Virus record (IMG/VR): IMGVR_UViG_3300025929_000001 | Location: 31,418-95,417 of that record | DNA length: 64,000 bases | Strand: one strand, 5' to 3' | Origin: a virus | Shown: positions 21,038 through 60,352 of the stretch, in pieces | Layout of the letters: each line of letters opens with the position of its first letter | Position numbering within the stretch: the first letter of the stretch is position 1 | Made by a program: the position numbers and the translations under genes | The notes under the pieces: generated by a model | Seen by the model: the letters and a program-made list of their open reading frames with translations, nothing else | Database searches by the model: none | Told to the model about the DNA's origin: nothing

Positions 21038-21456
21038 TGTTTGGTTATGACCTCGACGAGCTAGAAAAGCTATCCAACTGTCTGTTCTTTGCGGTTGCGC
21101 TTTTCTGCCGTCGACTCGTCAAGGGGGAGCGCGGTTATTTCACGATGCGCAAATCGGACTACGGTCGCTTCCCTCACTTCCTCTATGTGCGCGTAGACCC
21201 GCTTGGCAAAGAACGCTTTGTGTCTTTCGTGCCCAACGAACCTATTCCACGAGACTTCCCGCCACCCTTCTTTAAGGGTCATGTACAGTGGGGAGATCCT
21301 AAGCCGACTAAAGGGTGTCAAAGAAATGAGCTACATGACTGTTTGGCTGATTGTATGGAACATGTGGTGGATTCAAATGCACCCTGCAAGCACTACCAGC
21401 AAACACCCTGCCGCAAACGGCAAGCACCCGGCAAGCGCATAAAAATAACCCGCTAG
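21037..21456 (+). CDS. Hypothetical protein
   Basis: TGATG coupling; last + strand gene before the terminator. Confidence 0.55.
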   Translation: MFGYDLDELEKLSNCLFFAVALFCRRLVKGERGYFTMRKSDYGRFPHFLYVRVDPLGKERFVSFVPNEPIPRDFPPPFFKGHVQWGDPKPTKGCQRNELHDCLADCMEHVVDSNAPCKHYQQTPCRKRQAPGKRIKITR

Positions 21457-21480
21457 TACCTACCTAGCGGGTTTTATTTT
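21441..21480. terminator. Bidirectional intrinsic terminator between the convergent late and replication modules
   Basis: AAAAAT-AACCCGCTAG-tacctac-CTAGCGGGTT-TTATTTT. Confidence 0.85.
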
Positions 21481-21501
21481 AAACAGCTTAAAACGCTTGT
21501 A

Positions 21502-22107
21502 TTAGCTTTGCGTCATCATGTAAGACGTCCAAGGGTGCATTTCATCTGTGCGGTATTCGAAGTCCTCCAAGACCAGCAGCATTTCCCGGAACAGTACCAG
21601 CGCGCCTTCGAACTGGACTAATAGCCCGTTCTCTTGTTGAATCAAGTTATCCAGGATTGCGGTCATTGGGTTGTCGTCTGTTTTAGACGACATGCGGTTG
21701 CGCACATTGGTGATGCGCTCGATCTTAGCGGTGCTAGTAGACTCGCGCGCTTCGAACTGTTTAACCTGCTGTTCCGTCATCTGACGCATGTGCGACAGAA
21801 TGCTAGTGTGGTTAAAGTCAATACGCGGGTCGTTCATAAGCGCATTCAACATCGCTGCAAACTCCTGCATTACCCGGTCACGCAGTGGAGGTTGGTTCTT
21901 TCCAACTTGCCCGGTGCGGTCGTATTCTTCACGCCGCAGCACGTCACCTAAGATGTCGTAAGCTTCTTGCACGCGCTTGAATATAGTACCATCGTCATTA
22001 CCTTTATCCGGATGCCACATCTGCGCAAGGCTGCGGTAAGCCCTTTTAATTTCATCTGCGGTAGAGTCTTTCGCAACTCCGAGGACTTCATACAGGTTCT
22101 TGTTCAT
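21502..22107 (-). CDS. J-domain (DnaJ-like) protein
   Basis: NLYEVLGV...EIKRAYRSLA..WHPDK...F..VQEAYDIL.D..RR..YD; start re-placed at MNKNLY (22107) after AGGAG. Confidence 0.88.
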   Translation of the reverse strand: MNKNLYEVLGVAKDSTADEIKRAYRSLAQMWHPDKGNDDGTIFKRVQEAYDILGDVLRREEYDRTGQVGKNQPPLRDRVMQEFAAMLNALMNDPRIDFNHTSILSHMRQMTEQQVKQFEARESTSTAKIERITNVRNRMSSKTDDNPMTAILDNLIQQENGLLVQFEGALVLFREMLLVLEDFEYRTDEMHPWTSYMMTQS

Positions 22108-27313: not shown

Positions 27314-28243
27314 TTAAAAAAGTTGTTGGGACATTGCACACGGATACTGATAGTTATTGCGTCTAGCATCCTCGTTTACAAGGTCGTTGAGCTCCATGTA
27401 ACCTAGCATGTTGTAGATTGCGCGGCTCTCGTAAATCGAGCTAAGCCGATCATAATTAAAACCCTTACGATCCAACATGTTAGCGAGCTGTTGCTGCTCT
27501 AACTCTGTAAGTGTGGTAAAATGACGCCCGTTCTCATGCTTGCTTGGACTGTCCTTGGAAACCGCGATTGGGCCGTGTTCACTGGTAAAGATGCTTCCAA
27601 ACGCAGCAGCCTGAATCCAGGAGGACGAGTCACAAGAATGCCAAGGGTAGCGCATCATCAGGTTGGGCGACGTCATACCAAACCCATGCACTTTGAGCTT
27701 CGCACGACCCGACCCGTCCATCATGCGTTCCCACACGCGGTCTAACCACACTTCTTGGTCTTTAGCCGACTTACCGACCAGACCTCCAATCGTGATGTAC
27801 GAGTAGCGCTCCACATACCAGTCAAGATAACGTATGTCCTCACCGTAGTGGAAGCAGGGTAGCGGTTTAGCATCCTGCCGTTCCATCTCGAGTTGGTTTT
27901 GCCAGGTCTTTAGCGGATCACCAATGCCGTCAAGTACGGAAGCCATGACAGCACCATCTTCAACGCGTAGGATGTCCCGGTTGCGACGGATGTAATCACA
28001 ATAATCATCAATGCTAATATGCACGCCAAGGCTGTGAGCCGAGAAAGCACCTGAGTCCAGGAACACCTTGTGGCCTTGTTGTCTGATGACATCGACGAAG
28101 CGCTGTCCAGATATGTAATGATAGGATTCCAAAATGTGGGGTACACAACCGACGATTTCTTTTTCGATGTCTGTGAGTTTTTCATAACGTGCCTGTGTCT
28201 CTCGATAGTTATTTGTGAAAACTGCCGCAAGGAACAAATTCAT
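27314..28243 (-). CDS. dpdA: DNA 7-deazaguanine transglycosylase (DpdA, TGT-fold)
   Basis: ILESYHY, FLDSGAFSA, LDGIGD, PCFHYGE, IGGLV, KVHGFG and SCDSSSW motifs; close to folE/queD/queC/queE. Confidence 0.88.
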   Translation of the reverse strand: MNLFLAAVFTNNYRETQARYEKLTDIEKEIVGCVPHILESYHYISGQRFVDVIRQQGHKVFLDSGAFSAHSLGVHISIDDYCDYIRRNRDILRVEDGAVMASVLDGIGDPLKTWQNQLEMERQDAKPLPCFHYGEDIRYLDWYVERYSYITIGGLVGKSAKDQEVWLDRVWERMMDGSGRAKLKVHGFGMTSPNLMMRYPWHSCDSSSWIQAAAFGSIFTSEHGPIAVSKDSPSKHENGRHFTTLTELEQQQLANMLDRKGFNYDRLSSIYESRAIYNMLGYMELNDLVNEDARRNNYQYPCAMSQQLF

Positions 28244-28970: not shown

Positions 28971-29083
28971 TGTGGTAAAGCTCCTATAATAGCGCTGCCG
29001 TACGTTTAAACAGCGGGCAACGCGTTAAAAAAGCGGGTACACCCCAAAGCATACCCGCTTGATTTAAAACGCTTAAAACGCGT

Positions 29084-29482
29084 TTAAACCTTTGGGTCTT
29101 CCGCTGGAAATTCGGACGACACTGCCTGGTCTGCGACCTTGGCGTCAACAAACTTGCCCGTACTGTTCACGGTCTTTGGCGACAACTTGCCAGCGGCAAT
29201 CTCAGCGGCCGAAACTGCACCAGACAGGTCGTACTTGGAAGCTTGCTCTTTCTGGTAAGGCATCCAGCAAGCATACGCGCCGTTCGGCGGAGTTTCGTCG
29301 CCTTGCACCAGATACAGATCACGCAGTGCGAACGGGGTGCCGGTGTAGTCGAAACCACCGACGTTGATCTTGTTGTCAGCATGCACATAGCAGACCAGCG
29401 CGGGTTCCGGCTCGGTACCGGGTTCGTTGCGAAAGACCAGTACGACGCGGCCGACGGTAGGTTTGATGATAGGTGTGGTCAT
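29084..29482 (-). CDS. Conserved phage hypothetical protein (KPTVGRVV...WMPYQ)
   Basis: GAGG RBS; ATGA overlap. Confidence 0.65.
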   Translation of the reverse strand: MTTPIIKPTVGRVVLVFRNEPGTEPEPALVCYVHADNKINVGGFDYTGTPFALRDLYLVQGDETPPNGAYACWMPYQKEQASKYDLSGAVSAAEIAAGKLSPKTVNSTGKFVDAKVADQAVSSEFPAEDPKV

Positions 29483-29898: not shown

Positions 29899-30522
29899 TT
29901 ACATTGCGATTTTGAGGAACTCTGCACGAGTCTCGGCCTGGTCTTTCATCACACCGCGCAGAGCGGAAGTAACAGTGTGATGTCCCTGCTGGCAAATGCC
30001 GCGTGACTCCATGCACATGTGCCTAGCTTTTATGACAACACCGACGCCCTTTGGCTGCAAGTGCAATTGCAGCGCGTCTGCGATCTGGCAAGTAAGACGT
30101 TCTTGCACTTGGAGGCGACGTGCAAAAGCGTCAGCAAGGCGAGACAGTTTGCTAAGACCAACAATATTACCATCAGGGATATAAGCAATAGTAGCGGTGC
30201 CAAAAATATCAGCAAGATGATGCTCACACTTCGAGTAAATCGGGATGTCTTTAACGACGACCATTTCATCATAACCCTCCGAGCCGTCTTTGAACACCTT
30301 GAGGAGTTTAGCGATGTCGACGGAATACCCGCTAGTCCAGTGCTTCCAAGCTTTGACCACACGCGCTGGCGTTTCTGCCAAACCTTCGCGGTCTGCATTC
30401 TCACCTTGCACGACGCCGCCAAGCAGGTCGTAAATAATCCCTTCCTTGCTCTTTTGGGCAAGGTAGTCCATCTCGCGTTCTTCCTCGATCGCGGTCAGTT
30501 GTGCGTTGATATTGTTATCCAT
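29899..30522 (-). CDS. folE: GTP cyclohydrolase I
   Basis: REGL.ETP.RV, S.CEHH, GLSKL.R, RRLQVQERLT and H.CM..RG motifs. Confidence 0.96.
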   Translation of the reverse strand: MDNNINAQLTAIEEEREMDYLAQKSKEGIIYDLLGGVVQGENADREGLAETPARVVKAWKHWTSGYSVDIAKLLKVFKDGSEGYDEMVVVKDIPIYSKCEHHLADIFGTATIAYIPDGNIVGLSKLSRLADAFARRLQVQERLTCQIADALQLHLQPKGVGVVIKARHMCMESRGICQQGHHTVTSALRGVMKDQAETRAEFLKIAM

Positions 30523-30525
30523 GTC

Positions 30526-30975
30526 TCACCCTGTATAAACTGCTGAGTTAGCGCCGTGTTCTTTTACTTCGCATGACACAAGCTTAACGCGACCGATTTG
30601 TCTAACATCGAACAACCATTGCACGACCATGTCGAATACCATCTTTGCGAACATCTCGCAACCGACTGCCGGAACGGTAATGACTTCTGCTATGCCTAAG
30701 CCAGCAAGCGCACAGATTTCGTCATGTTGCGGGTCATCTTCTGCGACCAGCAATTTATGGTCGAAGGTATCTTGCAGCATCTTTTTAATGCTAGCAAGAC
30801 CGCCAAAGTCAATGACCCACATGCGCTCGTCGAGCAGTTCCGACTCGAACACCAGCTTGACCGCTATTGCATAGCCATGCAGATATTGGCAGTGTGAATG
30901 CGTTGCACGCCATTGACGGAATGCGCAGCTAAGGCCAATATCATGCCCCCATTGTTTTGTGCTTTGGAATGGCAT
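30526..30975 (-). CDS. queD: 6-carboxy-5,6,7,8-tetrahydropterin synthase
   Basis: HC.YLHGY, V.DFGGL, FDHK, E..A and EHGANSA motifs. Confidence 0.93.
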   Translation of the reverse strand: MPFQSTKQWGHDIGLSCAFRQWRATHSHCQYLHGYAIAVKLVFESELLDERMWVIDFGGLASIKKMLQDTFDHKLLVAEDDPQHDEICALAGLGIAEVITVPAVGCEMFAKMVFDMVVQWLFDVRQIGRVKLVSCEVKEHGANSAVYTG

Positions 30976-31757
30976 TATACCTCCGCAGACGTGCCGCGTT
31001 CGATGTCGTAGTTGCTGCTGAGCGGCAGCTCCATCAGACCAGCTTTAACCGCACGCATCACCAGCGGGTCAGGGACACCGGCTTCTTCGAAGCCTTTTGC
31101 ACGCAGCAGCGTCGCATGGTCGTGACCGGTCGGCGGATACTTGCCGTCGTAAGATGTGTGGCTATACGCCAGCGCTGCCATGCAATCGTGTAAGCTCATT
31201 GCAAGCTTGACCGATTCCGCCTTGGTAAGCGACATCAGCGGGGTCAAAATGCGCAGTGGTGGGATTGTGCCAGCTTCGCCGGTGAAGGTACCATAGTTGC
31301 AAGCTTCTTGCAGGGTGTTGATAAATACTGCGCGGCAGTCAGGATACCCGCCGTTATCTTCCTGGCAAACACCGGTCACAAGGATGTTGCAGCCCAGGAC
31401 GTATGCGCGGTTCGCTGCAACGGTGATGAACAACTGGTTGCGCATGGGTACGAAGGTCTTTTCCAGACCGCCGGGCAGCGACTGATGGTCAGCGTACTGT
31501 TCGAGCTCGACCGACTTGTTAGTCAGTGGGGACGTACCAGCGAGGATGCCGTCGCCAAGACGGATGAACTCGTGCTTCTCGCGGGGAATACCAGCCATCA
31601 TGGCAACGTGCTGTGCGGCGTCGAGTTCGATGCGGTGTTTTTGACCGTAGTCGAAAGTCACGCAGTGCACGTCGTAACCTTCGTTGATTGCCCAGAACAG
31701 GCAGGTCGTGCTATCTTGACCGCCGGACAGAATTACAAGTGCCTTTTGCTTAGCCAT
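30975..31757 (-). CDS. queC: 7-cyano-7-deazaguanine (preQ0) synthase
   Basis: LSGGQDSTT, FDYGQKH..E, TFVPMRN, GYPDCR and TPLM..TK motifs; the C-terminal Zn-binding cysteines are substituted. Confidence 0.93.
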   Translation of the reverse strand: MAKQKALVILSGGQDSTTCLFWAINEGYDVHCVTFDYGQKHRIELDAAQHVAMMAGIPREKHEFIRLGDGILAGTSPLTNKSVELEQYADHQSLPGGLEKTFVPMRNQLFITVAANRAYVLGCNILVTGVCQEDNGGYPDCRAVFINTLQEACNYGTFTGEAGTIPPLRILTPLMSLTKAESVKLAMSLHDCMAALAYSHTSYDGKYPPTGHDHATLLRAKGFEEAGVPDPLVMRAVKAGLMELPLSSNYDIERGTSAEV

Positions 31758-31767
31758 TTTTAGACTC

Positions 31768-32469
31768 CTATTCAACATCAATTATCTTGTGGGTCTGCAA
31801 TTGCAGGATGTAACCATGCTTCATGCAGCTAGCTTTGACCGCATCGACGTTGACCTTGTAAATGACTTCGTCTTTGGGGTCCATGGGCTGCACATAGATA
31901 GGCCTGGTATTGTCTTTGGGCGGCCGAGCAAGTTGCGGCGATGCTGTGTGGCCAAGCGCTTGGACTGGCAAACCGTCCGCGTCGTTAAGGCTGTCAGCGC
32001 TTAAGACGTATTTGAAGGCGTTGATATGGCTGAGCAGCTTGGGGCTGACCTTACCCGTCTTGGGGCTGCAAATGACCACAACCTTAGAGGGGAAGTCCTC
32101 CGGCGGTGCGAGCGTGCCGTTAGTCTCGACCTGAACGGTGAAACCTGCCGACAACAGCTTTTTGCATAGCGGGGTGATGTTTTGGCGGAATGGTTCGCCG
32201 CCGGTTATGACAACCAGGCAAGGCTTGTCAAGTGGGTTAAAGAAGAACACCTGATCGACTACGTCATGCATCGACATTTCCTTGCGACCAACCGTGTAGT
32301 CGGTATCGCAACCTGGGCACTGTAGATTACAGCCAGCCAGACGGACGAATACAGCGGGGTGTCCGCTGAAAGGGCCTTCGCCTTGGATTGTGTAGAAGAT
32401 GCTATGAACCGAGAGGATGATGCCGTTTGAGTCCCGATATTTTTCAATCGGTTGTTGGTTCTGGTTCAA
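31768..32469 (-). CDS. queE: 7-carboxy-7-deazaguanine synthase (radical SAM)
   Basis: FYTIQGEG, FVRLAGCNLQCPGCDT, ITGGEP, VETNG and QTHK motifs; probable TTG start at 32469 after GAGG. Confidence 0.95.
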   Translation of the reverse strand: MNQNQQPIEKYRDSNGIILSVHSIFYTIQGEGPFSGHPAVFVRLAGCNLQCPGCDTDYTVGRKEMSMHDVVDQVFFFNPLDKPCLVVITGGEPFRQNITPLCKKLLSAGFTVQVETNGTLAPPEDFPSKVVVICSPKTGKVSPKLLSHINAFKYVLSADSLNDADGLPVQALGHTASPQLARPPKDNTRPIYVQPMDPKDEVIYKVNVDAVKASCMKHGYILQLQTHKIIDVE

Positions 32470-32629
32470 TGTAACCTCACGAGGAACAGACAAGCCCTAG
32501 GCCTGTTGTGTACGGGTTTTGATGCGGGAGGGAGTGAACGGTTTTTACCGGGAAGCGCACGTTCCTTCTAGGTGGTGCACTTGCCGACAGGATAACCGAA
32601 AACCTCCGGGATGCCAGGCCGGAGTAGGC

Positions 32630-33214
32630 TTAGGCGGCGGCAGCTTCTGCGACCGGAGCGGCAGCAGGAGCTTCTGCAACGACAGGCTTGGCGACTTGGC
32701 CGAACACGCCGTTGAAGGTTTTCCAGCGAGCGTACTGCGTGCGGGTCGTTGCGTCGTTCAGGCCTTCGGCGGCGGTACGCTTGCTCAGCAGTGCGATGGT
32801 GACAGGCTGGCCCAGTTCAGCCGACATTGCGTCAGCGATTGCCCAGACCTTGCCGCAGGCGCCGTCTGGCTTCGGACGGGTGATGCCGTTCGATTGGGGC
32901 ATGACGACCTTCGGTGCTTTCTCGACAGCAGCGGCAGCAGCCTTCTGCTCAGCGGCCAGCTTGGCAGCGGCTTCCTTGGCTTCCTTGGCGGCCTGCTTTT
33001 CGGCTTCCTTCTTGGCCTTCACTTCGGCGCGTGCCTTGTCGGCCAGTTCCTTGGCTTCCTTCTTGGCAGCATCTGCCTTGGCCTTTGCTTCAGCTTTTGC
33101 AGCGTCAGCAATTTTCTTTGCTTCTGCTTTTGCAGCAGCAGCATCTGCCTTCGCTTTTGCAGCGGCATCGGCGGCTGCGGCGACTTGTTCTGGGGTTTGG
33201 ACGACGTCGTTCAT
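32630..33214 (-). CDS. Ala/Lys-rich histone-H1-like protein with a C-terminal helical domain (paralog family)
   Basis: AK-rich N-terminal half; C-terminal ITRP..G..G.VW.IAD...T.RTQYARW; AGGAG RBS. Confidence 0.75.
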   Translation of the reverse strand: MNDVVQTPEQVAAAADAAAKAKADAAAAKAEAKKIADAAKAEAKAKADAAKKEAKELADKARAEVKAKKEAEKQAAKEAKEAAAKLAAEQKAAAAAVEKAPKVVMPQSNGITRPKPDGACGKVWAIADAMSAELGQPVTIALLSKRTAAEGLNDATTRTQYARWKTFNGVFGQVAKPVVAEAPAAAPVAEAAAA

Positions 33215-33276
33215 GTTGACTCCTACTTGTGGTTTAGCCAAGGTGGCGGGAAAAAGTGTTACTGCGATCGAGTGAC

Positions 33277-33384: not shown

Positions 33385-34134
33385 TCACTTAGTCGACTTC
33401 CATTTTCCGAACTGCACGCTAGCAGTGCTACCGTTAATTCCTTCCGCTTCGCACGCTGCAATGATCTGTTTGCGGACGTCTTTTAACTCGCTCGGGCTAC
33501 CGGCAGCTAACCACACTTGTTCTGCGATCTCCCATACCCGACCGGTTTTCGATCCGGCTGCCGGTGCGCCAGCTGCAACCGGGGCCGCATTTGGGTCACG
33601 CGGTGCACGCGGCGTAGGCGCCTGTTTTGCTTGGGTAGCAAGCGCGTTAACAATGGGGTTTGCAACGCGGGCAACGGGGGTAGGCGCTGCGTTTGCTGCG
33701 GGTAAGGGGGGTATTACCGGTACATACGGCGCAGCGCTTACAAGGGGTTTTGCTGCGTATGCGTCATTTACTTCCAGGGGTTTGGTTTGACCTGGCGCGT
33801 AGCGGTAGTAATTGAGGTCGGTCGCGCTGACGAACGCGGCTTGTGTGGCTATCTCCGCAGCGTTAAGCGTAGACTCCGGCAGGTCGGTGAGCAGCGTGCT
33901 AATGTTCGGCTCGAGTCCATGACGCGTAAAGCCCGGAAAGTTGGTACCGGTCAGGTTCTTGTAGAGCAGTCTAAGCTCGAGGTCGCTAAACTTCTGCCAT
34001 GGCATCGTCACCTCGCAAGACAGCACTGCGGCTGCGCACTGCGGAAATTCGATGTGCATCAGGTCTGCAAGCACCTTCGCATCCGCGTGCTTGTAACGAA
34101 CCTGCATTGCATCTTTATCTATTAAGACGTACAT
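33385..34134 (-). CDS. Hypothetical protein with the same C-terminal helical domain (paralog family)
   Basis: C-terminal GSKTGRVWEIAE...GIN.STASVQF.KW; AAGGAG RBS. Confidence 0.75.
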   Translation of the reverse strand: MYVLIDKDAMQVRYKHADAKVLADLMHIEFPQCAAAVLSCEVTMPWQKFSDLELRLLYKNLTGTNFPGFTRHGLEPNISTLLTDLPESTLNAAEIATQAAFVSATDLNYYRYAPGQTKPLEVNDAYAAKPLVSAAPYVPVIPPLPAANAAPTPVARVANPIVNALATQAKQAPTPRAPRDPNAAPVAAGAPAAGSKTGRVWEIAEQVWLAAGSPSELKDVRKQIIAACEAEGINGSTASVQFGKWKSTK

Positions 34135-34190
34135 TCTAAATCTCCTTGTGCTGTTTAAACAGCTTTTATTGTAGCACAAATTTTTAAAAG

Positions 34191-35903
34191 CTAAAACGGA
34201 ATTTCATTACCGTTGATAGCTGTTTGGAACCCGCCGGTGAACGACACTTGCAGGATTTCAGGATGCGGCTTGTTGAGCCAGACCTTTATGTGCGTCGGTG
34301 CGAGCAATTGGTCAAAGAGCTTTGCAGCAGCGTCCGTAGACTCAGGGAATGGTAAGCTTGTCCGTTCTTCCCACCATTCACGAGCTTTGCGGCGGCCGAA
34401 CCCTTCGTGCTCGAACAACACCCATTGATTGTATCGGTGGACGCCGCAAAAGTACGTTACCCAAAGGCTAGGCGGTTTGCCAGGCTTATTGTGTATCTTA
34501 AAGGTAATGGTGTCAACCTTCAGCACCTCCACGACGGGCATGTCATTCTTGATGAGCTCCTCACTGCTAGCATTCATCTTGAGCAGCACCTTAAAGGTGA
34601 ACTCCATGCCGCAGCCCGCGGGTGACTTAAAAGGTTCGCCGCCGCAATAGCGTGCTGAGATGTGGTTATACATCCCGCAGCCGTCGCAAATTTTGATAGG
34701 TACGTCGCCTTTAGCGCCACCCTTCTTGCGCGGCAGCACCGGGTCGTTGATAGGTCCTAAGCGCTTGGAGTTCTGCGCAAAGTCCATCACCAAGCAATTT
34801 TGCTTTTCGGAATGCTCAATTGCATCCAAACGGCCCTGAGTAGTTGTCAGGTCAAAACCGTCTGCGTATAACGGACGCGTACCACGACCAAGCATTTGCA
34901 CCCAAAGAACTGTCGACTGTGTTGGACGCAGCATAACGATAAGGTCAATAGCCTTGAAGTTAACACCGGTCGTCAATATACCGTTGTTCACCATTGCTTT
35001 GAACTTACCCGCTTTCCAGTCCGCGATATTGTCATCGCGTTCCTTGTCGGTCATCTTACTGTGAACACACCGGGCACTGATGCCCAGATAGTTCAGCATT
35101 TGTGTTATCTTAAGTACGTGCTGAATCCCGCTACCAAAAACAAGCCAATGTTCTCGACCATAACCGTGTAGAACGGCCTCTTTGAGCGCAGCAAAAGTAA
35201 TTTCATCTTTATCAACTGCAAGTTGCAGTTCCTTTTGGTTGAATTCGCCACCCTGTAAGTGCACGCCAGTGACGTCCAGGATTGTCTCTGTACTCTTTGG
35301 CACCAACGGCACCAAATAGCCTTCTTTGATGAAACGATTAAATGCCGCCATGCTAGTTACGTCAAACGGAATATCCGTAAAGATACCGTCGTCAGTAATC
35401 TTGCCTTGACCAGCTCGCCACGGCGTAGCGGTAAGACCGATAACGCGCAGATACGGGTTTACTTCTTTGAGCTTAGCGATAACCTTTTGATACATCGACT
35501 CATCGTTTTGCGAGAGCAGGTGGCACTCGTCGATTATCATAAGGTCAACCCGACCGAAGTCAGCAATTGCCTTGTTAATCGACGCGATACCGCAAAAGGT
35601 AATATTGGAATGGAGGTCTTTGCGCTTGAGTCCAGCGCTGTAAATGCCTGCGGGTGCAGTGGGCCAGATGCCCATGAACTCGAGATAGTTTTGCTCGATA
35701 AGTTCTTTTACATGTGTGGCTACAAGTATCTTCTGCCTAGCATACATGCGCAATGCACGTTCCAGGAATGCAGCAATGACCACACTCTTGCCGGTTCCGG
35801 TCGGCATGGCCACCACGGGATGCCTGTCTAAATCAGGCGTCTTTGCAAAATAATCAAATAGGCAGTTAACCGCTTCGTCTTGGTAATCGCGAGGGACTAG
35901 CAT
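34191..35903 (-). CDS. SF2 DNA helicase (RadD/YejH-like) with Zn finger
   Basis: PRDYQ, PTGTGKS, DECH, LTATP, LTTG, QMLGRGTR, and CxxC...C motifs. Confidence 0.93.
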   Translation of the reverse strand: MLVPRDYQDEAVNCLFDYFAKTPDLDRHPVVAMPTGTGKSVVIAAFLERALRMYARQKILVATHVKELIEQNYLEFMGIWPTAPAGIYSAGLKRKDLHSNITFCGIASINKAIADFGRVDLMIIDECHLLSQNDESMYQKVIAKLKEVNPYLRVIGLTATPWRAGQGKITDDGIFTDIPFDVTSMAAFNRFIKEGYLVPLVPKSTETILDVTGVHLQGGEFNQKELQLAVDKDEITFAALKEAVLHGYGREHWLVFGSGIQHVLKITQMLNYLGISARCVHSKMTDKERDDNIADWKAGKFKAMVNNGILTTGVNFKAIDLIVMLRPTQSTVLWVQMLGRGTRPLYADGFDLTTTQGRLDAIEHSEKQNCLVMDFAQNSKRLGPINDPVLPRKKGGAKGDVPIKICDGCGMYNHISARYCGGEPFKSPAGCGMEFTFKVLLKMNASSEELIKNDMPVVEVLKVDTITFKIHNKPGKPPSLWVTYFCGVHRYNQWVLFEHEGFGRRKAREWWEERTSLPFPESTDAAAKLFDQLLAPTHIKVWLNKPHPEILQVSFTGGFQTAINGNEIPF

Positions 35904-39442: not shown

Positions 39443-39744
39443 TTTGAGTCCCTCATTTGTTTGAGTGCAACTGCATATTGATTCCAGTAGTCGACCGCTT
39501 GCTTCATCCGACTAAAATGGAACTCAGCTGACGGTAAGTATAACAGACAGCCGCAAAACAGATCGCTTGTTTGTGGCCCAAAGCGATCCCCTTGTGTGCA
39601 ACAGACAAGGGTTTCCGTCTTTTCGTGCGGGCCTTCGCTGTAACGGAAAAGCTCTGCTGGAGAGCCACATATCGGACATGCTTCCAATGTCACGCCTTCC
39701 GGTGTAGGGATAGGCTTATAGCAGTCATGCATAGGTGTAGTCAT
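39427..39744 (-). CDS. Lar-like Zn-finger protein
   Basis: LEACPICGSPA...C...C...AV.YWN resembles the restriction-alleviation Lar family pattern. Confidence 0.5.
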   Translation of the reverse strand: MTTPMHDCYKPIPTPEGVTLEACPICGSPAELFRYSEGPHEKTETLVCCTQGDRFGPQTSDLFCGCLLYLPSAEFHFSRMKQAVDYWNQYAVALKQMRDSKCNGS

Positions 39745-40235
39745 TTTGCAGCCTCCTCAGCAATTTCAATTAGACGACGTAACCGTTCCATTGCTTGCGT
39801 CTGGTTGGTGGCACCAAGCAAGTTCCAGAGCGCATGCATAGCGGTAGACGTACTCTGCGCAGCGATGCTGTCGCTCGTGAAGCCCTGCGCCCACTGCGGT
39901 CGCATACTGCGTTCCGTTTCAAGCTGCTGCTCTAGCCTTTTAATTCGACTACGCATAAGCGATATGGTCGCAGGTCGCGTATTTGCATCGGCCAATATGA
40001 CGAAGTTGTCAGCAATTGCATCTAACAACTCATTGCGCGTTGCATCGCGGTTTTCCATCGGGCCTGCACGCATAAGCACGCGCTCGATAACTTCTTTTAA
40101 GTCACTCATGTTTTCTCCTGAACTGGTTGGTGCGAACAAACCTTTGTCTGATTCGCATAAGCTGCAAACAGGCTGCGCACGAATGGTCTGGTCGCCACAT
40201 TCGGTGCACCTAATCCAATCGTACGCATCACTCAC
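39741..40235 (-). CDS. Hypothetical protein (N-terminal CxxC pairs)
   Basis: Coupled ORF. Confidence 0.55.
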   Translation of the reverse strand: MSDAYDWIRCTECGDQTIRAQPVCSLCESDKGLFAPTSSGENMSDLKEVIERVLMRAGPMENRDATRNELLDAIADNFVILADANTRPATISLMRSRIKRLEQQLETERSMRPQWAQGFTSDSIAAQSTSTAMHALWNLLGATNQTQAMERLRRLIEIAEEAAK

Positions 40236-42759: not shown

Positions 42760-45237
42760 CTAATTTTTACGGGCTGACTTAAGTTCCTTCTCTTCGGACG
42801 TAGACAGTGGAAGGTGCACTATGCGGAAGCTTCTACCGTGGAAGTTATAGTTCGTAACGCACTTGTCTTTTGCGTACTCCAACAAGTAACCGGAGTCGAT
42901 AAGCGACTTAATGGTCAGATCCAGCGCACTGTTCGCACCTTGTCTGTGGCCACTAAACGATGTAGTCCGTTGCAAGCTGATTTGCAAGTACTTGCGCGGA
43001 ACGATACCATCACGCCGCATCTGGTCGGTAACTTGATAGCTCTCCGGAATAGGCGACTTCAGGTACTTGGTCAAGACTGAGAGCATTTTCTTTTCACGTG
43101 CGGAGTCACCTGTACCCACGTCACCGGAACTAATGCGACGGCGCATAATTGCAATGTCTGCACGTATGAGGTCCAAAGCCCATTGAACATGGTAAGGTTG
43201 TATGACAGGAGCGACGTAGTTATCGCCCACGGCCAATAGGGCTGCAATGCGGAGCGCTTTGAGATGAGCACGATTCCACATCTGGCGCCAGCCTTCATCG
43301 TCGGTCTTATTAATTTGCTCATCACACTCCCGATCAAAGGCTGCTAGCATTGCATGCGCCGCAGACGAGCGCTCTACTTCCTGATTCGCGAACCTACCGT
43401 TAAGCTGGATAGCTTGCGCTGTTAGACCACACAACGCTTCCAGCAGATATTTATCCGGATGCTTTTGCGGGTTAGGATTAGCGGACGGTCTGTCACCTGC
43501 ATACTCGATTACCGTAAAGCGTGACAGGAAACCATCCTCCATCATGTTCTCGGTAAGCGCTTCGTAGAAGCCGCCTGGTGTAGACTCACCAATCATGCTG
43601 TAGGCTGCACCAGACACGCTAGCTACATTGTTTTCCTTGTTGCTGTACCCGATACCACCAACAATCGAGGCAGGACCAGACTTCTGATACAGGTTCGTCA
43701 TTACTGTGCGCAATGATTGCATCGGACCGTCGCGACCATCCTCGACCGCCAGGCGCTTAAGCTTGCGTCCCCACTCACCGGACACGTTAACGAACGACGG
43801 GTTTGCTGCAACTGCCTTAGACAGTGCAGGGCCCGACGCATAGTCGCTAAAGTCGATGAACTCAATTGCCTTGGGTATGCTGGAATTGACATGCGTCATC
43901 ACGTTAGCGATACCGCTATGCATTGCTTCCTTACCTACCGCTGACCGCGCGACGAGTACGATGTAGAGGTTAAGGCCTGACTGCGGTATAGAAAATGCTT
44001 TGCCACAAATTCCCGCCATGAGTCCGAGGGCACTGACAATCGCCACTTCTCGCACCGGTCGCGGTGCAGTCGAATATATGTACTCAGCGAGCGCGCCAAC
44101 CATACCCGGCGGCCATTCAAGGCTGGACGGTCTTGGGGTATTCTCCTCGTCGTCCGTACCCATACTATCATCTCCGCCTTCGTCAGCATAGGGCGCCGGC
44201 GTAGTAAGCTCCTCGGGGAACGGGATGGGTGTGCGCGGAACGGCGTAGAGGGGTACATTAGATGCTCCTGGAGGTGCGTTATACGCGGGTTGAACTTGCT
44301 GCGCTGGCATAGGTGCGTTTAACTTTGCTACGAGCGCGGCGCTAGTTGCAGCAGCATAGACGTCGACTTCTTCTTCAGACGCTTGGCGTCCCCGGATAAC
44401 AGACAGTATCCGGTTAAGTGCTACGTCGTTCTTTGTAGCCTTAGCACGTTCACCAAGCTTGGTCAGACGGAACATGCGACGGCATTGTTCGTTCGACTTG
44501 CTGTAGAATGCAAATATGGACATCAAGGCCAAGTCTGCTTCTGACTGCGACGGGTAGTCTGTTGTCCAGTTACCGCTACACAGTTGCACGAACTTGTCGC
44601 TGTTGTCAGCTTCCTTAGCACGCTCCCAAATTACTTCGTCGGGCTCTGTTGCTTCAACCTCGACCAGCGCGAACTTCTTTTGGTCGTCCGGCATTCCCTG
44701 CCTAATTTCAGCAACAAGGATATCAAGCAGTTCTTGTCGGGGTTGGATATCGCGCTGGAGATACACATCGCCCGTACAGACGATAAATCGTTCTTGAGAG
44801 TAAACCTCAACACCATCCCGCTTGAGCCCTTCACCGATCTTACCGCGTACCCAGATATGAAATCCTTGTCCGCTAGCAGAGCGTTCAGTATAGCTGTCAA
44901 ATGCGTGGATGATTCGATAAAAACGCTGAATGTGTTCTTCGGGAGTGTGCTTTGTGTGGTCAGGTTCGTTGAACTCATTTTTAATATCCAGATCAATACA
45001 AGTGTACGCGTCTTGTTTGCTTAGGATATAACCAATGCCGGCACCTTCGACGGTAGCAGCAGCTTCAATCGTTGTCTCAATGTCCTTCCAATGGAAACTT
45101 TGTGTAGGGCTGATGTGCATTAGTCCGCGTGGGCTTAAAACGTGCGGAGCTTTCATCTTGCCATACTGATCCGGGCCTGCAACAGCCCAATTCCTACCCC
45201 ACCGGAGTTCTTCCGGTATTTTGTCGTAGTCGACCAT
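42760..45237 (-). CDS. Primase-polymerase (NrS-1-like AEP) fused to a DUF3987-type helicase
   Basis: IDLD, ERS.SG.G.HIW, EVYS..RF and SQSEADLAL motifs; C-terminal ARSAVGKE P-loop and DGFLSRF. Confidence 0.85.
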   Translation of the reverse strand: MVDYDKIPEELRWGRNWAVAGPDQYGKMKAPHVLSPRGLMHISPTQSFHWKDIETTIEAAATVEGAGIGYILSKQDAYTCIDLDIKNEFNEPDHTKHTPEEHIQRFYRIIHAFDSYTERSASGQGFHIWVRGKIGEGLKRDGVEVYSQERFIVCTGDVYLQRDIQPRQELLDILVAEIRQGMPDDQKKFALVEVEATEPDEVIWERAKEADNSDKFVQLCSGNWTTDYPSQSEADLALMSIFAFYSKSNEQCRRMFRLTKLGERAKATKNDVALNRILSVIRGRQASEEEVDVYAAATSAALVAKLNAPMPAQQVQPAYNAPPGASNVPLYAVPRTPIPFPEELTTPAPYADEGGDDSMGTDDEENTPRPSSLEWPPGMVGALAEYIYSTAPRPVREVAIVSALGLMAGICGKAFSIPQSGLNLYIVLVARSAVGKEAMHSGIANVMTHVNSSIPKAIEFIDFSDYASGPALSKAVAANPSFVNVSGEWGRKLKRLAVEDGRDGPMQSLRTVMTNLYQKSGPASIVGGIGYSNKENNVASVSGAAYSMIGESTPGGFYEALTENMMEDGFLSRFTVIEYAGDRPSANPNPQKHPDKYLLEALCGLTAQAIQLNGRFANQEVERSSAAHAMLAAFDRECDEQINKTDDEGWRQMWNRAHLKALRIAALLAVGDNYVAPVIQPYHVQWALDLIRADIAIMRRRISSGDVGTGDSAREKKMLSVLTKYLKSPIPESYQVTDQMRRDGIVPRKYLQISLQRTTSFSGHRQGANSALDLTIKSLIDSGYLLEYAKDKCVTNYNFHGRSFRIVHLPLSTSEEKELKSARKN

Positions 45238-48134: not shown

Positions 48135-48294
48135 GATATTTCTCCTAAATGAACCTTCTGAACTCCATCTGCTAAACGTGCGTTTATAGCGTTTATTTTA
48201 GCACATAGGGGGTAGGGTGCAAGCGCTTAAATTTGCGTGCGGTAGGGTGTTTAAAACGGGTTAAAAGCGATAGTTTTACGGGGTTAAACCCCAA

Positions 48295-48361
48295 CCAGAC
48301 AGGGTCCGTAAAGACCCTGTTTCGTCTAATTAATAGATGTAATTAATAGACTCATCAGTGG
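48295..48361 (-). ncRNA. Type I hammerhead ribozyme HH-A (cleavage GUC| between 48298 and 48297)
   Basis: CCA-CUGAUGA-[GUCUAUUAAU uacaucu AUUAA u UAGAC]-GAAA-[CAGGGUC uuuacg GACCCUG]-UC|UGG. The core is intact but stem I is short. Confidence 0.85.
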
Positions 48362-49461
48362 GACTGTTGCTGCGAATCGATTTCGGACAGCGTGCTAAGC
48401 AAGACACCGATGTTGCCTCGGACTTTCTCGAACTTAAGGTTCGCAGCCTTCAATGCTTCTTCGTGCTTGTGCGGAATCATGTTGACCATTAACAAAACCC
48501 GATCCGCACTAGCTGCCATGCTTTTGAGCTTGTGGACCGATTCGTCAGTGTGGTAAAAGGTCAGCTTAAACTTATCGCCGAACTTATCCTTTACTTCTTC
48601 AATGTGTATGGACTTAAGTAGTCCTGCGACGACTATCTTTTGTTTGCTAACAGTCGGTTCCATGGCTACCCCGATCGGGTTGTGTCTGATTGGACTTCGA
48701 TTGTGCGTCTGTGGGCGTAACATGTCTTGTACCTCCGATGATTTGAGAATGTCTAGTACGTTAACCTTAAATCGGTCAGCGAGTTTGTCCAGCAATGCGT
48801 CCAGCAATTGACCTGCGGTAAAGTCTGCCGGTGTAGCAGCTAGCGCGAGCGCTACAGGTTCCGTTATAGCTGGTGCGGGCTCCGGTACGCTGGCAGCAAC
48901 AAGGTCCACCATGTCTGCAAGCCAGTGCGCGTTGACCTTAATGTTCCCGATTGGAATGCGCCGCCTGTCTTCTGCCAAACATGATGCCTGGGCTTGGTCG
49001 AGCGCCTGGCTTAAGCTTACGAACGGTTGCTTCCTGCGGATAACCGCAACCTCATGCGCAAGCGTGATGCGCTCGTCGTGTGACCACACAATCTTAGGCT
49101 TCCGTCCCTTGATACCTTCAGGAACTTCTCGAACGACCGGTGTAGTCAGTTCGACGCTAGGTGTAGGTTGAAGCGGCCCTACGAACTCGGGCACGTCCGG
49201 TTGCTTTAACCGATACTTGTAAGCCCGCTGACCACCTGACTTATCGACTTCTAATGTGTGGTTATTAACCAGCATCTGAATTCGATTAGCCACCATCTTC
49301 TTATCATACGTAGAGCAGACATCCATTATATCAGCAGACTTTGCCCAGAGGTTAGCGGTGTTATTGAACATGTCAATGATCAGTTTACCTACCTGCGAAC
49401 GGGCTTCCGTCTGCGACTCGCTTACTACCATGCGAGCGTGTTGTATCTCTATGTTGTTCAT
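48355..49461 (-). CDS. Multidomain hypothetical protein (N-terminal winged-helix-like, C-terminal DUF2325-like alpha/beta)
   Basis: 368 aa; AGGAG RBS; the stop codon is the UGA of the hammerhead core. Confidence 0.7.
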   Translation of the reverse strand: MNNIEIQHARMVVSESQTEARSQVGKLIIDMFNNTANLWAKSADIMDVCSTYDKKMVANRIQMLVNNHTLEVDKSGGQRAYKYRLKQPDVPEFVGPLQPTPSVELTTPVVREVPEGIKGRKPKIVWSHDERITLAHEVAVIRRKQPFVSLSQALDQAQASCLAEDRRRIPIGNIKVNAHWLADMVDLVAASVPEPAPAITEPVALALAATPADFTAGQLLDALLDKLADRFKVNVLDILKSSEVQDMLRPQTHNRSPIRHNPIGVAMEPTVSKQKIVVAGLLKSIHIEEVKDKFGDKFKLTFYHTDESVHKLKSMAASADRVLLMVNMIPHKHEEALKAANLKFEKVRGNIGVLLSTLSEIDSQQQSH

Positions 49462-49470
49462 TGCTGTCTC

Positions 49471-49746
49471 CTAGTTCAAACGGGTTATCTTGGCAAACTT
49501 ACCTTGTTCCATGCTCCAGAAGTTGCCGTTTATCATGGAGCCGGCGTCGTTCTTAGCGAACGCTGCGGGTGCTAACGCTTGCTGATCTTCCAGCCCTTCC
49601 AGAACCAACTGCACTTCGCTGACGAAGGTGTCAGTACGTTCGCATATCAGCTTGGGGACGTTGCGGTGTATCTGGTATATGCGAGCCGTTTTATATAACG
49701 AGTCACCCTTCTTGGTTTCGTAGTAGGTATAGACGAAGTGTTTCAT
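49471..49746 (-). CDS. Hypothetical protein
   Basis: AGGAG RBS. Confidence 0.65.
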   Translation of the reverse strand: MKHFVYTYYETKKGDSLYKTARIYQIHRNVPKLICERTDTFVSEVQLVLEGLEDQQALAPAAFAKNDAGSMINGNFWSMEQGKFAKITRLN

Positions 49747-49767
49747 TGATCATTGCTCCTAAAAAGT

Positions 49768-49796
49768 AAAAACCCCGGCAAACATCACCGGGGCTT
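49768..49796 (-). terminator. Intrinsic terminator
   Basis: GCCCCGGUGA-ugu-UUGCCGGGGU-UUUU on the - strand. Confidence 0.75.
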
Positions 49797-49814
49797 ATGG
49801 GACGCTGTTAAGCG

Positions 49815-50330
49815 TTAAGATTGCTGGCCTTGCTTGGCAAGCTCGTCGAACTTTTCCGCAATCACACCTTGCAGACCATCGTAGCAGCCGTCGACATACT
49901 CGGCGGTTTGGATGCCTTGGTCAGCTTGGCCGCCAGCGACGTCGATTTCGCGGAACAGGATTGCAGCCAGTGCAAGCTGGGCGATGCCGGCTTCCATTAT
50001 CTGGTTTGCAAAGAACATGCGTGCATCCTGTCCTTGCGCCGGTTGGGCCGCTTGTTGTGTCGCTTGGGTTTGCGCTGGCGCGGTTTGAGCTTGTTGCGCA
50101 ACGGCTGCGCCACCCTGCTCCCCGCCAAGGGTTTCAGCGAGGTCGCCGTTGCTTTGCTCATTCCCGTTCTGACCGCCGGTGTTCGTAACGTTACCGATGC
50201 GACCGTCGGTGGCCGGGTCAGTAACTCGACCACGACCATCGCTACCCTGATTGGTTTGCTTGGCCTGAGTGGGCTGTGCTGCGCCCTGGCGGGTTTGATT
50301 TGAACGACCGCGAGTGCCTGTTGTTGCCAT
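49815..50330 (-). CDS. Gln/Gly-rich low-complexity protein with a helical C-terminus
   Basis: AGGAGCAATATC-ATG at 50330; lies 37 nt downstream of the HH-B cleavage site. Confidence 0.7.
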   Translation of the reverse strand: MATTGTRGRSNQTRQGAAQPTQAKQTNQGSDGRGRVTDPATDGRIGNVTNTGGQNGNEQSNGDLAETLGGEQGGAAVAQQAQTAPAQTQATQQAAQPAQGQDARMFFANQIMEAGIAQLALAAILFREIDVAGGQADQGIQTAEYVDGCYDGLQGVIAEKFDELAKQGQQS

Positions 50331-50362
50331 GATATTGCTCCTATAAAGATGCGATGAAGTTA

Positions 50363-50438
50363 CCGCATACACAATAAGCCCGCGTGTAAGGCGAGCTATT
50401 GTGTTTCGTCCGAGAACCACTCGGACTCATCAGTGCGG
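50363..50438 (-). ncRNA. Type I hammerhead ribozyme HH-B (cleavage GUA| between 50368 and 50367)
   Basis: CCGCA-CUGAUGA-[GUCCGAG ugguu CUCGGAC]-GAAA-[CACAAUAGCUCGC cuuacac GCGGGCU u AUUGUG]-UA|UGCGG. Confidence 0.93.
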
Positions 50439-50439
50439 A

Positions 50440-51252
50440 TTACGCTGCGGGTGCAGGCTGTTCTGCTGCCGATTGTTCGGTAGCGGCTGCTGGCGCTTCT
50501 TGCCCTTCCGGGAGTTCGAAGTTACCAGCGGGGCCGAACCCGACCGTCCACACCGGCGCAGGCTGTTGAGCTTGCACTGGCGTTGGCAGAGCGACGCGAC
50601 CGCGAACACCGTGATATGCACGCCACCGAGCGTACTGCGTTTTGATGGTGTGGTCATTCATACCGCGGATACGGCTGTCTGCTTTGATCTCCGCAATGGT
50701 TGCCGGCGTCGTTCCCGGATGCGACTTGCTGATCTCGTCCGCAACATCCCAGACCGTACCGGTCAGCGTACCAGACGCGGGGCGGGTGATGTTGTTGCGG
50801 GTCAGCTTAGCTGGCCGCGGAGGTTGTGGGGCCTGGCCTTGCAGCAGTTGGGTGACTGCGTTCGGGTCGGAGATGCCCAGTTCCTTAGCGACGTTGGCGG
50901 CTGCTTCTTCCATTTTTTGCTTGAACTCGGCAGCGACCTGTTCCGGAGTGCGATGCAGCGGGTCGGCACCATCGGGTACCACTGGAGCGGCGAGATGCTG
51001 CGCGACGAAGGCGTGCGCTTGGTCCGGCTGGATTGCGCGGCGTTCTTCGCGTTCGCGCCGTTCCTGGGCGATAACTTCTGGCGGCAGGTCGGATGCGGCC
51101 TGGTCGTTGGTGTTCGTGGTGTCTTGGGCACCTTGCAGCTTGAGCTCGTCTGCGTGCTGCTTGTCTTCAGCAGACATAACCTTGGATGCGATGGGCTTAG
51201 CAGCGACGGATTTACGACCTTTTGGTGCGACGTGGGATTGAACGTTTGCCAT
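50440..51252 (-). CDS. Protein with the paralogous helical domain, flanked by two hammerheads
   Basis: NNITRP.SG..TG.VW.VAD...T.KTQYARW; AGGAGCAATATC-ATG. Confidence 0.8.
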   Translation of the reverse strand: MANVQSHVAPKGRKSVAAKPIASKVMSAEDKQHADELKLQGAQDTTNTNDQAASDLPPEVIAQERREREERRAIQPDQAHAFVAQHLAAPVVPDGADPLHRTPEQVAAEFKQKMEEAAANVAKELGISDPNAVTQLLQGQAPQPPRPAKLTRNNITRPASGTLTGTVWDVADEISKSHPGTTPATIAEIKADSRIRGMNDHTIKTQYARWRAYHGVRGRVALPTPVQAQQPAPVWTVGFGPAGNFELPEGQEAPAAATEQSAAEQPAPAA

Positions 51253-51378
51253 GATATTGCTCCTATGATGAACTGCGGTTGGTGCTGGAAGGTTCCAGCT
51301 GGCTTAACTATATAACAATTTTGCGGTAGCGGTTGGCGTTTAAACAAACTTTCGCTAGCTTGCTGATAGGCCACCTTT

Positions 51379-51443
51379 ACTGCTGACGTAGACCTTAAGT
51401 GTCTGGGTCTACGTTTCGGATCATTAATCCTCATCAGAGCAGT
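51379..51443 (-). ncRNA. Type I hammerhead ribozyme HH-C (cleavage GUC| between 51385 and 51384)
   Basis: ACUGCU-CUGAUGA-[GGAU uaaug AUCC]-GAAA-[CGUAGACC cagacacuuaa GGUCUACG]-UC|AGCAGU. Confidence 0.94.
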
Positions 51444-54522: not shown

Positions 54523-54708
54523 GATATTGCTCCTGAGGTGAAATGCATCTGTTGGATGCGGTTGGGTAAATGCGTATTGTACTGCTAAACGTGCGTTTAT
54601 GGTGCACATTTAAACGCGTTTTAAGCGCTTAAATGCATTTTTGCGGGGAGGGTATAGGGTACCCGCTAAAAACGCAGGCAACATGCGTTGCCCACGGTTT
54701 AAACGGTA

Positions 54709-55200
54709 TTAATAGCGCGTGCCCCGGTACCAATCCGGGTAACACACAAATTCCCCTGCATCATTGCGCCCTGTCTCGCGGATGCGGTCAGCTTCGTTCT
54801 CCGCACGCAGACGTTCTGCTGCACGCTTGTCGTTGCTACGAATCTTCCCTGACCCTTCGCAGGTGTAGCAGGTCTTATCGTACCCGCCGTTGAAATACAT
54901 TTCGCGGGACTCCTCGTCGTCAAAGGCTTCGTAGAATTCAGACTGCGTGTAGCTGCCCAGATGCCTGCAGTGGTGCCCGTCCCCTGAACAGGTTGGGCAG
55001 ATAACCCAACCGCCGCGCACTTCAGACTCTGCGGGTGAGAACTCACCACAATCGCACCCTGCCTCGGTTTCGTGGCAGTTAATGCAGATCGTTGAGGCAG
55101 ATTTGGGTGCGGAGAAGCTTTCGCACTCGCAGTAGACTTCAGGTTCGCGGCAGACTGTGCATTTTGGCAGGGAATCTGGATCAATTTGATTGTAGCGCAT
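54709..55200 (-). CDS. Cys-rich Zn-finger protein (two CxxC..CxC units plus a DnaJ-type CxxCxGxG pair)
   Basis: CTVC..CEC, CINC..CDC, CPTCSGDG and CYTCEGSG motifs. Confidence 0.7.
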   Translation of the reverse strand: MRYNQIDPDSLPKCTVCREPEVYCECESFSAPKSASTICINCHETEAGCDCGEFSPAESEVRGGWVICPTCSGDGHHCRHLGSYTQSEFYEAFDDEESREMYFNGGYDKTCYTCEGSGKIRSNDKRAAERLRAENEADRIRETGRNDAGEFVCYPDWYRGTRY

Positions 55201-60141: not shown

Positions 60142-60352
60142 CTTAATCTCCTTAACGGTTTAAACGGGTTTTAAGCGCTTTAAATGCAAAGCTAGGGTTA
60201 GGTACCAGCTACCCGTTAAAAACAGCGTAGCGGTACCGCAAAACGCGTGCTATGGGGTTGATTTAATGCGCTTTAAAACCCTTAATACCGGGCGAAAGTA
60301 CCCGACACTAACCGCACCATTCGAGATAGTGTGGTTAGTAGCTGATCCTTTC

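Follow-up and report, generated by a model that had tools for sequence, protein, structure and literature searches.

The phage genome held as IMG/VR record IMGVR_UViG_3300025929_000001 carries, inside a protein-coding gene, a stretch of 168 bp in which the dinucleotide GA is missing from both strands, so that neither GA nor TC occurs on the strand that was read. The stretch is located at positions 33597-33764 of the window, by which we mean the whole 64,000 nucleotides that were analyzed here. The window takes up bases 31418-95417 of the record, which is complete at 95,417 bp and has a terminal repeat of 127 bp. The gene that contains it (33385..34134, minus strand) encodes a protein of 249 amino acids, and the GA/TC-free run, which we refer to as the patch, falls within the segment for a Pro/Ala linker. 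The explanation that we favor, with a probability of about 0.55, is that the patch is a stretch kept by selection without the target of the phage's own DNA guanine transglycosylase DpdA, namely the G in 5'-GA-3' on either strand, and that it is therefore probably unmodified. The absence of GA/TC is itself selected, as synonymous sites are at the minimum that the peptide permits and the same position in the gene is affected in distant lineages. That the patch would be free of the modified base dPreQ0, and that this unmodified state would be the selected property, draws on the DpdA homologs of other phages. The selected modification-free window proposed in an earlier note on this DNA thus stands in its first half, on codon controls and distant lineages, and stays conditional in its second.

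GA/TC is common elsewhere, as the earlier note had pointed out, and occupies 11.3% of the positions in the window. The run was originally drawn at 33598-33764 with a length of 167 bp; it is real, but slightly longer. It represents the longest GA/TC-free stretch both in the window and in the whole 95,417-bp genome, where the next longest runs are 140, 111, and 101 bp, and the longest run without AG/CT, a dinucleotide of equal frequency, is only 72 bp anywhere in the genome. A geometric estimate puts the genome-wide chance of such a run at about 10^-4.8. The patch encodes residues 125-179, the linker location having been recognized correctly from the start, and is flanked by the codons for Asp124 and Asp180. 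If the single GA/TC of the Asp180 codon is allowed for, the depleted zone extends over 211 bp (33554..33764) and spans nearly the whole of the disordered linker. The edges are sharp and the loss is total, with no gradient.

The amino acid composition of the linker does not account for the run. With the peptide held fixed and codons drawn according to genome usage, 3.1 GA and 8.5 TC were expected and none was observed, and the probability of finding none was 0.027 for GA, 1.1e-5 for TC, and about 1.5e-7 for both. Furthermore, all 106 genes were rebuilt in 2 sets of 1,000 replicates, with codons drawn from genome usage in the first set and shuffled synonymously within each gene in the second, which is the type of control that the earlier note had suggested. 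The longest coding run had a mean length of 70 bp and a maximum of 112 bp in the first set, and a mean of 73 bp and a maximum of 127 bp in the second. The observed coding run of 168 bp exceeded those of all 2,000 shuffled genomes, in agreement with the claim that it lies beyond chance, and the second-longest real coding run is 73 bp. The depletion is visible in the choice of codons: there is no GTC, ATC, or TCN codon in the patch, serine is encoded by AGC, and proline mostly by CCC, which is the proline codon that is safe ahead of any next codon. On the coding strand the signal is stronger for TC than for GA, and the absence of both fits a strand-symmetric reader of duplex DNA.

The same property was identified in distant relatives. 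We collected 13 full-length orthologs of the protein from uncultured viral contigs (loci of 10-13 kb, here numbered L001 to L013), which were 29-49% identical over the aligned protein. The linker run was the longest of the locus in L001, L002, L003, and L005 and the second longest in L008 (107-156 bp), and it was also the longest of the locus in L013 (110 bp). Weaker linker runs were present in L004, L006, and L007. No linker run was found in L009-L012, yet 3 of these 4 loci hold a GA/TC-free run elsewhere. Given each peptide and the local codon usage, the probabilities of the long runs in the orthologs ranged from 2.5e-4 to 1.2e-8. Linker runs were likewise found in named phages, with lengths of 111 bp in NP1 and VPv62 (second longest), 127 bp in JG054 (longest), and 157 bp in iggy (NC_070970 39300-39456; third longest). 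It was also noted that the annotated frame of gp52 in iggy appears to be wrong; the ortholog is the open frame NC_070970 39988..39302 (L027 15080-15663), which encodes the N-terminal domain and a Pro/Ala tail, and in which the C-terminal three-helix domain is seemingly missing.

To compare lineages irrespective of where single runs end, GA/TC was counted over the whole linker and set against the number expected and the minimum that the peptide permits. The phage studied here has 2 GA/TC, with 15.9 expected and a minimum of 2. Three lineages are also exactly at their minimum of 3, namely L002 (14.0 expected), NP1 (9.7 expected), and VPv62 (10.6 expected). Another 3 are within one of it: L005 with 4 (16.2 expected, minimum 3), L008 with 3 (13.1 expected, minimum 2), and iggy with 5 (16.9 expected, minimum 4). 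The island-free lineages are at or nearer to the expectation, with 23 observed and 22.6 expected in L009 (minimum 6), 23 and 23.0 in L010 (minimum 8), 26 and 27.4 in L011 (minimum 11), 32 and 33.5 in L012 (minimum 12), 15 and 15.1 in phage CAjan (minimum 8), and 15 and 21.1 in phage 9g (minimum 8). Both the peptide and the DNA of the linker are poorly conserved among the lineages compared, and the conserved property of the linker is thus the absence of GA/TC rather than a sequence.

The presumed reader of GA is encoded a few kilobases away. The DpdA gene (27314..28243, minus strand) was identified by its match to phrog_887 (E 6e-81), and there was no match between its product and the Pfam TGT family (PF01702). 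The protein is 62% identical to DpdA of CAjan and 59% identical to DpdA of iggy. The set of genes for preQ0 synthesis is complete at 29899..32493 on the minus strand and consists, according to Pfam, of FolE (29899..30522; GTP_cyclohydroI, 2e-66), QueD (30526..30975; PTPS, 7e-15), QueC (30975..31781; 8e-53), and QueE (31768..32493; Radical_SAM/Fer4_12). The gene order is that of CAjan and iggy, with a helicase, the phrog_7864 gene that contains the patch, an activator-like gene, the que genes, and dpdA. The phage very probably exchanges some of its guanines for a modified base. In CAjan, nanopore mapping has placed dPreQ0 at GA and GGC (PMC7544227), just as the earlier note had stated. In iggy, the DpdA acts on GA only; about 97% of the GA sites are modified and 99.75% of the modified G are in a GA context (PMC10484667). 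GA is taken as the probable target of the enzyme studied here on the grounds of its 59-62% identity to these 2 enzymes.

The second motif of CAjan is also reduced. In 9 linker islands, and conditional on the absence of GA/TC, GGC/GCC showed the strongest depletion among all 32 strand-symmetric trinucleotides, with 56 observed and 88.2 expected (z -5.0). In the intergenic islands, which are AT-rich, 5 were observed and 17.5 expected. The islands thus avoid both GA and GGC, and the two avoided words are the two mapped DpdA motifs. In the patch, 6 GGC/GCC remain and about 11.6 were expected. The statement that GGC is not avoided was therefore right in that the word is still present, but wrong in that it is partly depleted.

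All of the other long GA/TC-free runs in the genome are non-coding. A run of 79 bp (28983..29061), upstream of a small gene located before dpdA, is of the same class but differs in motif content. A run of 101 bp (48169..48269) contains a promoter-like TTGCAC, about 17 nt, and TAAAAT, and ends at a ribosome-binding site. A 179-bp island with one GA/TC (54556..54734) contains palindromes of the TTTAAGCGCTTAAA / TTTAAACGCGTTTAAA type, and palindromes of the same family are present in a run of 111 bp (60150..60260). Finally, a run of 140 bp (21374..21513) lies over convergent gene ends and a terminator hairpin. The 4 promoter regions (28983-29097, 48169-48269, 54556-54734, and 60150-60260) are GA/TC-free from about -100/-110 to the ribosome-binding site. 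They precede early/middle operons on the minus strand and have the overlapping palindromes TTTAAGCGCTTAAA and TTTAAACGCGTTTAAA in common. The -35-like hexamers in these islands avoid the GA of the TTGACA consensus, as in the TTGCAC at 48.2 kb.

An excess of GA/TC-free runs, with none for control dinucleotides such as AG/CT, was observed in the genome studied here, in the contig G002, and in the phages iggy, NP1, VPv62, and JG054. The contig G011 contained one GA/TC-free run. The coding islands in these relatives are located in disordered, low-complexity linkers of replication proteins. In iggy, a coding run (NC_070970 42700-42870) lies in a DUF669 SSB-like protein, although much of this run is already accounted for by the peptide (P 0.0014). 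The runs in NP1 (39698-39841) and G011 (13741-13851) probably lie in the same SSB-like gene, as judged by position and ORF (open reading frame) size, and the run in G002 (14121-14274 of the contig) lies in the linker of a primase-like protein. These coding runs in other replication proteins measure 111-171 bp. There were no islands in 6 dpdA-negative phages (T1, lambda, YuA, M6, P22, and T7), in which the longest runs were 42-67 bp. In this small sample, the trait is confined to phages with dpdA and is present in about half of them. Among the phages searched, we found no dpdA-negative phage with an ortholog of phrog_7864, and all carriers of the family on contigs of sufficient length have DpdA. 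A comparison of gene content identified no gene specific to the island-bearing phages, and the top candidates for such a gene were rejected as artefacts of antisense ORFs. A full-text search of the literature yielded no paper that describes GA/TC-free islands.

In the phage vB_VhaS-tm (KX198614), which has dpdA and shows no GA/TC excess, we noted GG/CC-free runs of 150, 133, 108, and 108 bp, and the DpdA of this phage may read another G-dinucleotide.

Several observations weigh against the proposal that the patch is kept free of the DpdA target. No islands were found genome-wide in 6 phages with dpdA (CAjan, 9g, Vid5, R7M, MiCath, and vB_VhaS-tm), and the loci L009-L012, from close relatives, lack the linker island even though DpdA, in the loci that hold it, is 61-72% identical to the enzyme studied here, which shows that the presence of DpdA is not sufficient. 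Island-bearing and island-free phages are not separated in the DpdA tree; the trait is patchy, and the DpdA phylogeny was rejected as a predictor of islands. The association with dpdA rests on few and phylogenetically clustered genomes. In CAjan, where both motifs are modified, there is no stretch from which GA and GGC are jointly absent. The specificity for GA is transferred to the present DpdA from enzymes that are 59-62% identical, and if the enzyme also acts on GGC, the 6 GGC/GCC left in the patch imply that it is not fully unmodified. Finally, no functional DNA element was identified in the patch by promoter scan, by comparison with the motifs of the islands, or by a search for repeated sites.

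These searches gave the following results. A scan for consensus sigma-70 promoters found none in the patch, although TTGACA contains GA and the scan is therefore biased against GA-free promoters. Of the 6- and 7-mers enriched in the intergenic islands (palindromes TTTAAA / GTTTAAA / GCTTAAA), none occurs in the patch except for one AAACGC, and the idea that the patch holds the same regulator sites as the intergenic islands was rejected since their motifs are absent. The best families of 8-mers in 6 orthologous patches, examined as candidate iterons, did not rise above a codon-conditioned null (fraction equal to or above the observed, 0.11-1.0). No AT-rich block that could serve as an unwinding element was seen within the gene, the patch itself being 61% G+C, and an Rfam scan of the whole window gave no match above the gathering thresholds. 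Hammerhead ribozymes that had been proposed at 48295-51443 do not attain these thresholds. The suggestion in the earlier note that the patch serves a protein that needs guanine N7 contacts or normal DNA mechanics found no support, and no feature resembling a binding site was found in it.

The global extreme of the cumulative GC skew lies no more than about 350 bp from the phrog_7864 gene in NP1 (~34716), JG054 (~32429), VPv62 (~25600), and MiCath (~27894), in each case inside a block of co-oriented genes. Its sign is inconsistent, with a maximum in the NP1 group but a minimum in MiCath, and it lies 2.3 kb from the gene in the phage studied here and 5.5 kb from it in iggy. As a marker of an origin, the position of the skew extreme is a weak hint.

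The alternative that survives best holds that GA/TC is read by another factor, such as a nuclease from the host or the phage, a restriction system that depends on modification, or another DNA-binding factor whose minimal site contains GA, and that the patch escapes this reader rather than the modification. It would accommodate the patchiness of the trait, since half of the examined phages with dpdA are island-free and the islands do not follow the DpdA tree. The loss of the linker island in L009-L012, which keep DpdA, would fit a second factor specific to a lineage or a host. However, the avoided word is exactly the DpdA motif mapped in both characterized relatives, and the next most depleted word, GGC/GCC, is the other motif of CAjan. 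Moreover, no gene is specific to the island-bearing phages and the dpdA-negative controls have no islands. We consider a separate GA reader unlikely.

A more improbable alternative is neutral decay, in which modification makes GA sites prone to mutate, for instance by way of intermediates of the base exchange, and GA/TC erodes where constraint is weakest, with no function attached. All of the coding islands found are indeed in disordered, low-complexity linkers (of the phrog_7864 protein, the DUF669 SSB-like protein of iggy, and the primase-like protein of G002), and GA/TC at codon junctions is slightly low across the genome, at 0.965 of the shuffled value. Yet a genome-wide deficit of only 3.5% cannot yield a local deficit of 100%, and the depletion in the patch is total and sharp-edged rather than graded. 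The intergenic DNA adjoining the gene contains 14 GA/TC in 143 bp, which is normal, as it is in most other intergenic gaps, and the linkers of CAjan and of L009-L012, which have dpdA, are exactly at expectation. General erosion of GA/TC was ruled out by the normal adjoining DNA together with the small deficit at junctions.

A constraint on the mRNA would act through avoidance of Shine-Dalgarno-like GA words or of an RNase site, or through tuned loading of Rho on a C-rich transcript. In the mRNA of the linker, C is abundant (39%) and G is scarce (22%), and the patch of this phage folds better than shuffled sequences (z -2.8 for the sense and -4.7 for the antisense strand). The folding is not conserved, however, as 10 orthologous islands have z values of about 0, and no Rfam family was matched. 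GA and UC are both avoided, and the avoidance is stronger for UC, which corresponds to GA on the opposite strand of the DNA. Promoter DNA that is not transcribed shows equal avoidance. We regard a constraint at this level as very improbable. It was noted that the patch contains an inverted repeat of 12 nt (33680-33691 / 33730-33741) and is unusually self-complementary in this phage only; neither the self-complementarity nor the direct repeats at 66-bp spacing are present in the orthologous patches.

Least probable of all is that a Pro/Ala/Thr-rich linker, whose Pro and Ala codons require no GA/TC, was lengthened by internal duplications in which the duplicated unit lacked GA/TC by accident, an artefact of composition already largely refuted by the shuffles, the P values of orthologs with differing linker sequences, and the linker counts, which are at the theoretical minimum in several lineages and at expectation in control lineages with similar linkers. 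The patch does contain weak direct repeats at spacings of 31, 33, and 66 bp, which hint at an old partial duplication, but they are short and 76-91% identical, and the divergence of the linkers speaks against recent copies. Tandem Repeats Finder reported just a 9-bp unit in 2.1 copies; a tandem-repeat origin of the patch was rejected on this basis, and because the weak repeats at 31-66 bp cannot explain the orthologs. The linker codons are not fully independent owing to the internal repeats, which makes the P value from the single genome somewhat optimistic, and the comparative evidence is independent of this caveat.

If the patch is indeed kept free of the DpdA target, selection would remove the GA step that the phage's own enzyme most probably modifies, and a duplex of about 170-210 bp within the replication module would probably stay free, or nearly free, of dPreQ0. 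The disordered Pro/Ala linker would be the segment best able to absorb the coding cost, which comprises the exclusion of Asp and Glu, the restriction of Ser to AGY, the loss of GTC, ATC, and TCN codons, and restricted codon junctions. The unmodified DNA could serve as a site in the replication module where loading, melting, or binding must succeed in modified and unmodified DNA alike; such a site would be read by its shape or chemistry and not by a conserved sequence. This is our leading guess, with about one chance in three within the explanation. The lack of an element in the patch, together with the location of the other coding islands in linkers of replication proteins, may point to a need for unmodified DNA somewhere in the replication module, at a place that a protein can tolerate. 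A bolder form of this idea, which we put forward tentatively and think will probably not hold, is that phages with a DpdA specific, or mainly specific, for GA need at least one unmodified duplex of about 100-170 bp in the replication module. Replication or recombination, unable to work on dPreQ0 DNA, would use it as a zone for starting or loading, and the duplex would carry no sequence signal of its own and be parked in any disordered linker of a replication protein that is available.

The system resembles those of the Queuovirinae-type phages iggy and CAjan in the family of the enzyme, the set of preQ0 genes, and the gene order. The likeness to iggy extends to the avoided word, which is the mapped DpdA target, and to the GA/TC-free run in the orthologous linker. 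The published work on iggy and CAjan, by comparison, describes the placement of the modification and not motif-purged stretches, of which CAjan has none. Unlike these 2 phages, the phage studied here has a genome of 95 kb, is uncultured, and is known here from its sequence alone. As in the genome-wide avoidance of restriction or modification motifs by phages, selection removes a short word that is read by an enzyme, also at synonymous sites. The differences are that the depletion is confined to local islands of 80-180 bp with sharp edges, that GA/TC is normal elsewhere, and that the enzyme belongs to the phage itself, which it protects by modification, and is not a host nuclease.

The origin of replication of phage lambda is situated inside gene O, in the segment that encodes a flexible link between 2 protein domains, and contains iterons and an AT-rich region. 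The patch is similar in that a feature at the DNA level lies over the linker-coding part of a two-domain gene of the replication module, next to a helicase function, and dissimilar in that no repeated site rises above the null and the G+C content is high. Regulatory DNA that is kept free of modification is exemplified by the unmethylated CpG islands of vertebrates and the protected non-methylated GATC sites of E. coli. These are conceptual analogs, in which modification is locally absent from DNA that must be read; there, however, the motif is kept and the enzyme is blocked, whereas here the motif is written out, even through a coding segment.

The gene that contains the patch was assigned to phrog_7864 by a profile match (E 9e-49), and its ATG is preceded by AAGGAGA. 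In an AlphaFold model built on 14 orthologs, residues 1-135 form a confident alpha/beta domain at the N-terminus and residues 196-246 a three-helix bundle at the C-terminus. The two are separated by the disordered Pro/Ala linker (about 125-190), in which the pLDDT is below 50 at 156-172 and 182-187. The protein matched no Pfam family, no structure in the PDB by Foldseek at E <= 0.001, and gave no usable match in the ESM Atlas. A wider fold search with residues 190-249 gave only generic matches to three-helix or winged-helix-like folds (Z 5-6.6). Just upstream of the gene there is a GA/TC-free intergenic stretch of 56 bp (34144..34199, minus strand) with a hairpin and the sequence TGCTACAAT, which is promoter-like as judged by eye only.

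The gene directly upstream encodes an SF2 helicase (34191..35903, minus strand; ResIII and Helicase_C in Pfam), and the order of the helicase and phrog_7864 is kept in CAjan and iggy. The gene downstream (32630..33241, minus strand) was assigned to phrog_11298, and its product is 51-57% identical to homologs in CAjan and iggy that are annotated as putative transcriptional activators. The products of this gene and of the phrog_7864 gene share a paralogous C-terminal domain of about 50 amino acids (BLASTP E 4e-6, 32% identity over 50 amino acids) with the motif G-R/K-V-W-x-I-A-D/E ... S-T ... Q-x-x-K/R-W-K. In the locus L024, a gene ending in the shared domain is followed by an intergenic GA/TC-free island of 133 bp. 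Farther away, a gene for a protein of 825 amino acids (42760..45237, minus strand) gave weak signals of an AEP-primase and of an NrS-1-polymerase-like protein, together with a DUF3987 helicase-type domain. The linker between its domains is somewhat below average in GA/TC (11 per 150 bp) but, unlike that of G002, not purged.

Hypermodification of phage DNA is mostly regarded as a shield from the nucleases of the host. Holes in this shield that selection maintains, even across coding sequence, would reveal a cost of the modification to the DNA transactions of the phage itself, and where this cost arises. With this pattern, the target of an uncharacterized DpdA can also be read from sequence alone, here fully for GA and partly for GGC, and is experimentally approachable since iggy, for which nanopore maps are published, and NP1 are cultured. 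If the tentative proposal of an obligatory unmodified duplex is true, the linkers used would be those of the phrog_7864 protein in the phage studied here, NP1, and iggy, of the DUF669 SSB-like protein in iggy (probably also NP1 and G011), and of the primase-like protein in G002. The duplex would then represent a novel type of cis-element, with the lack of a modification motif as its sole defining property.

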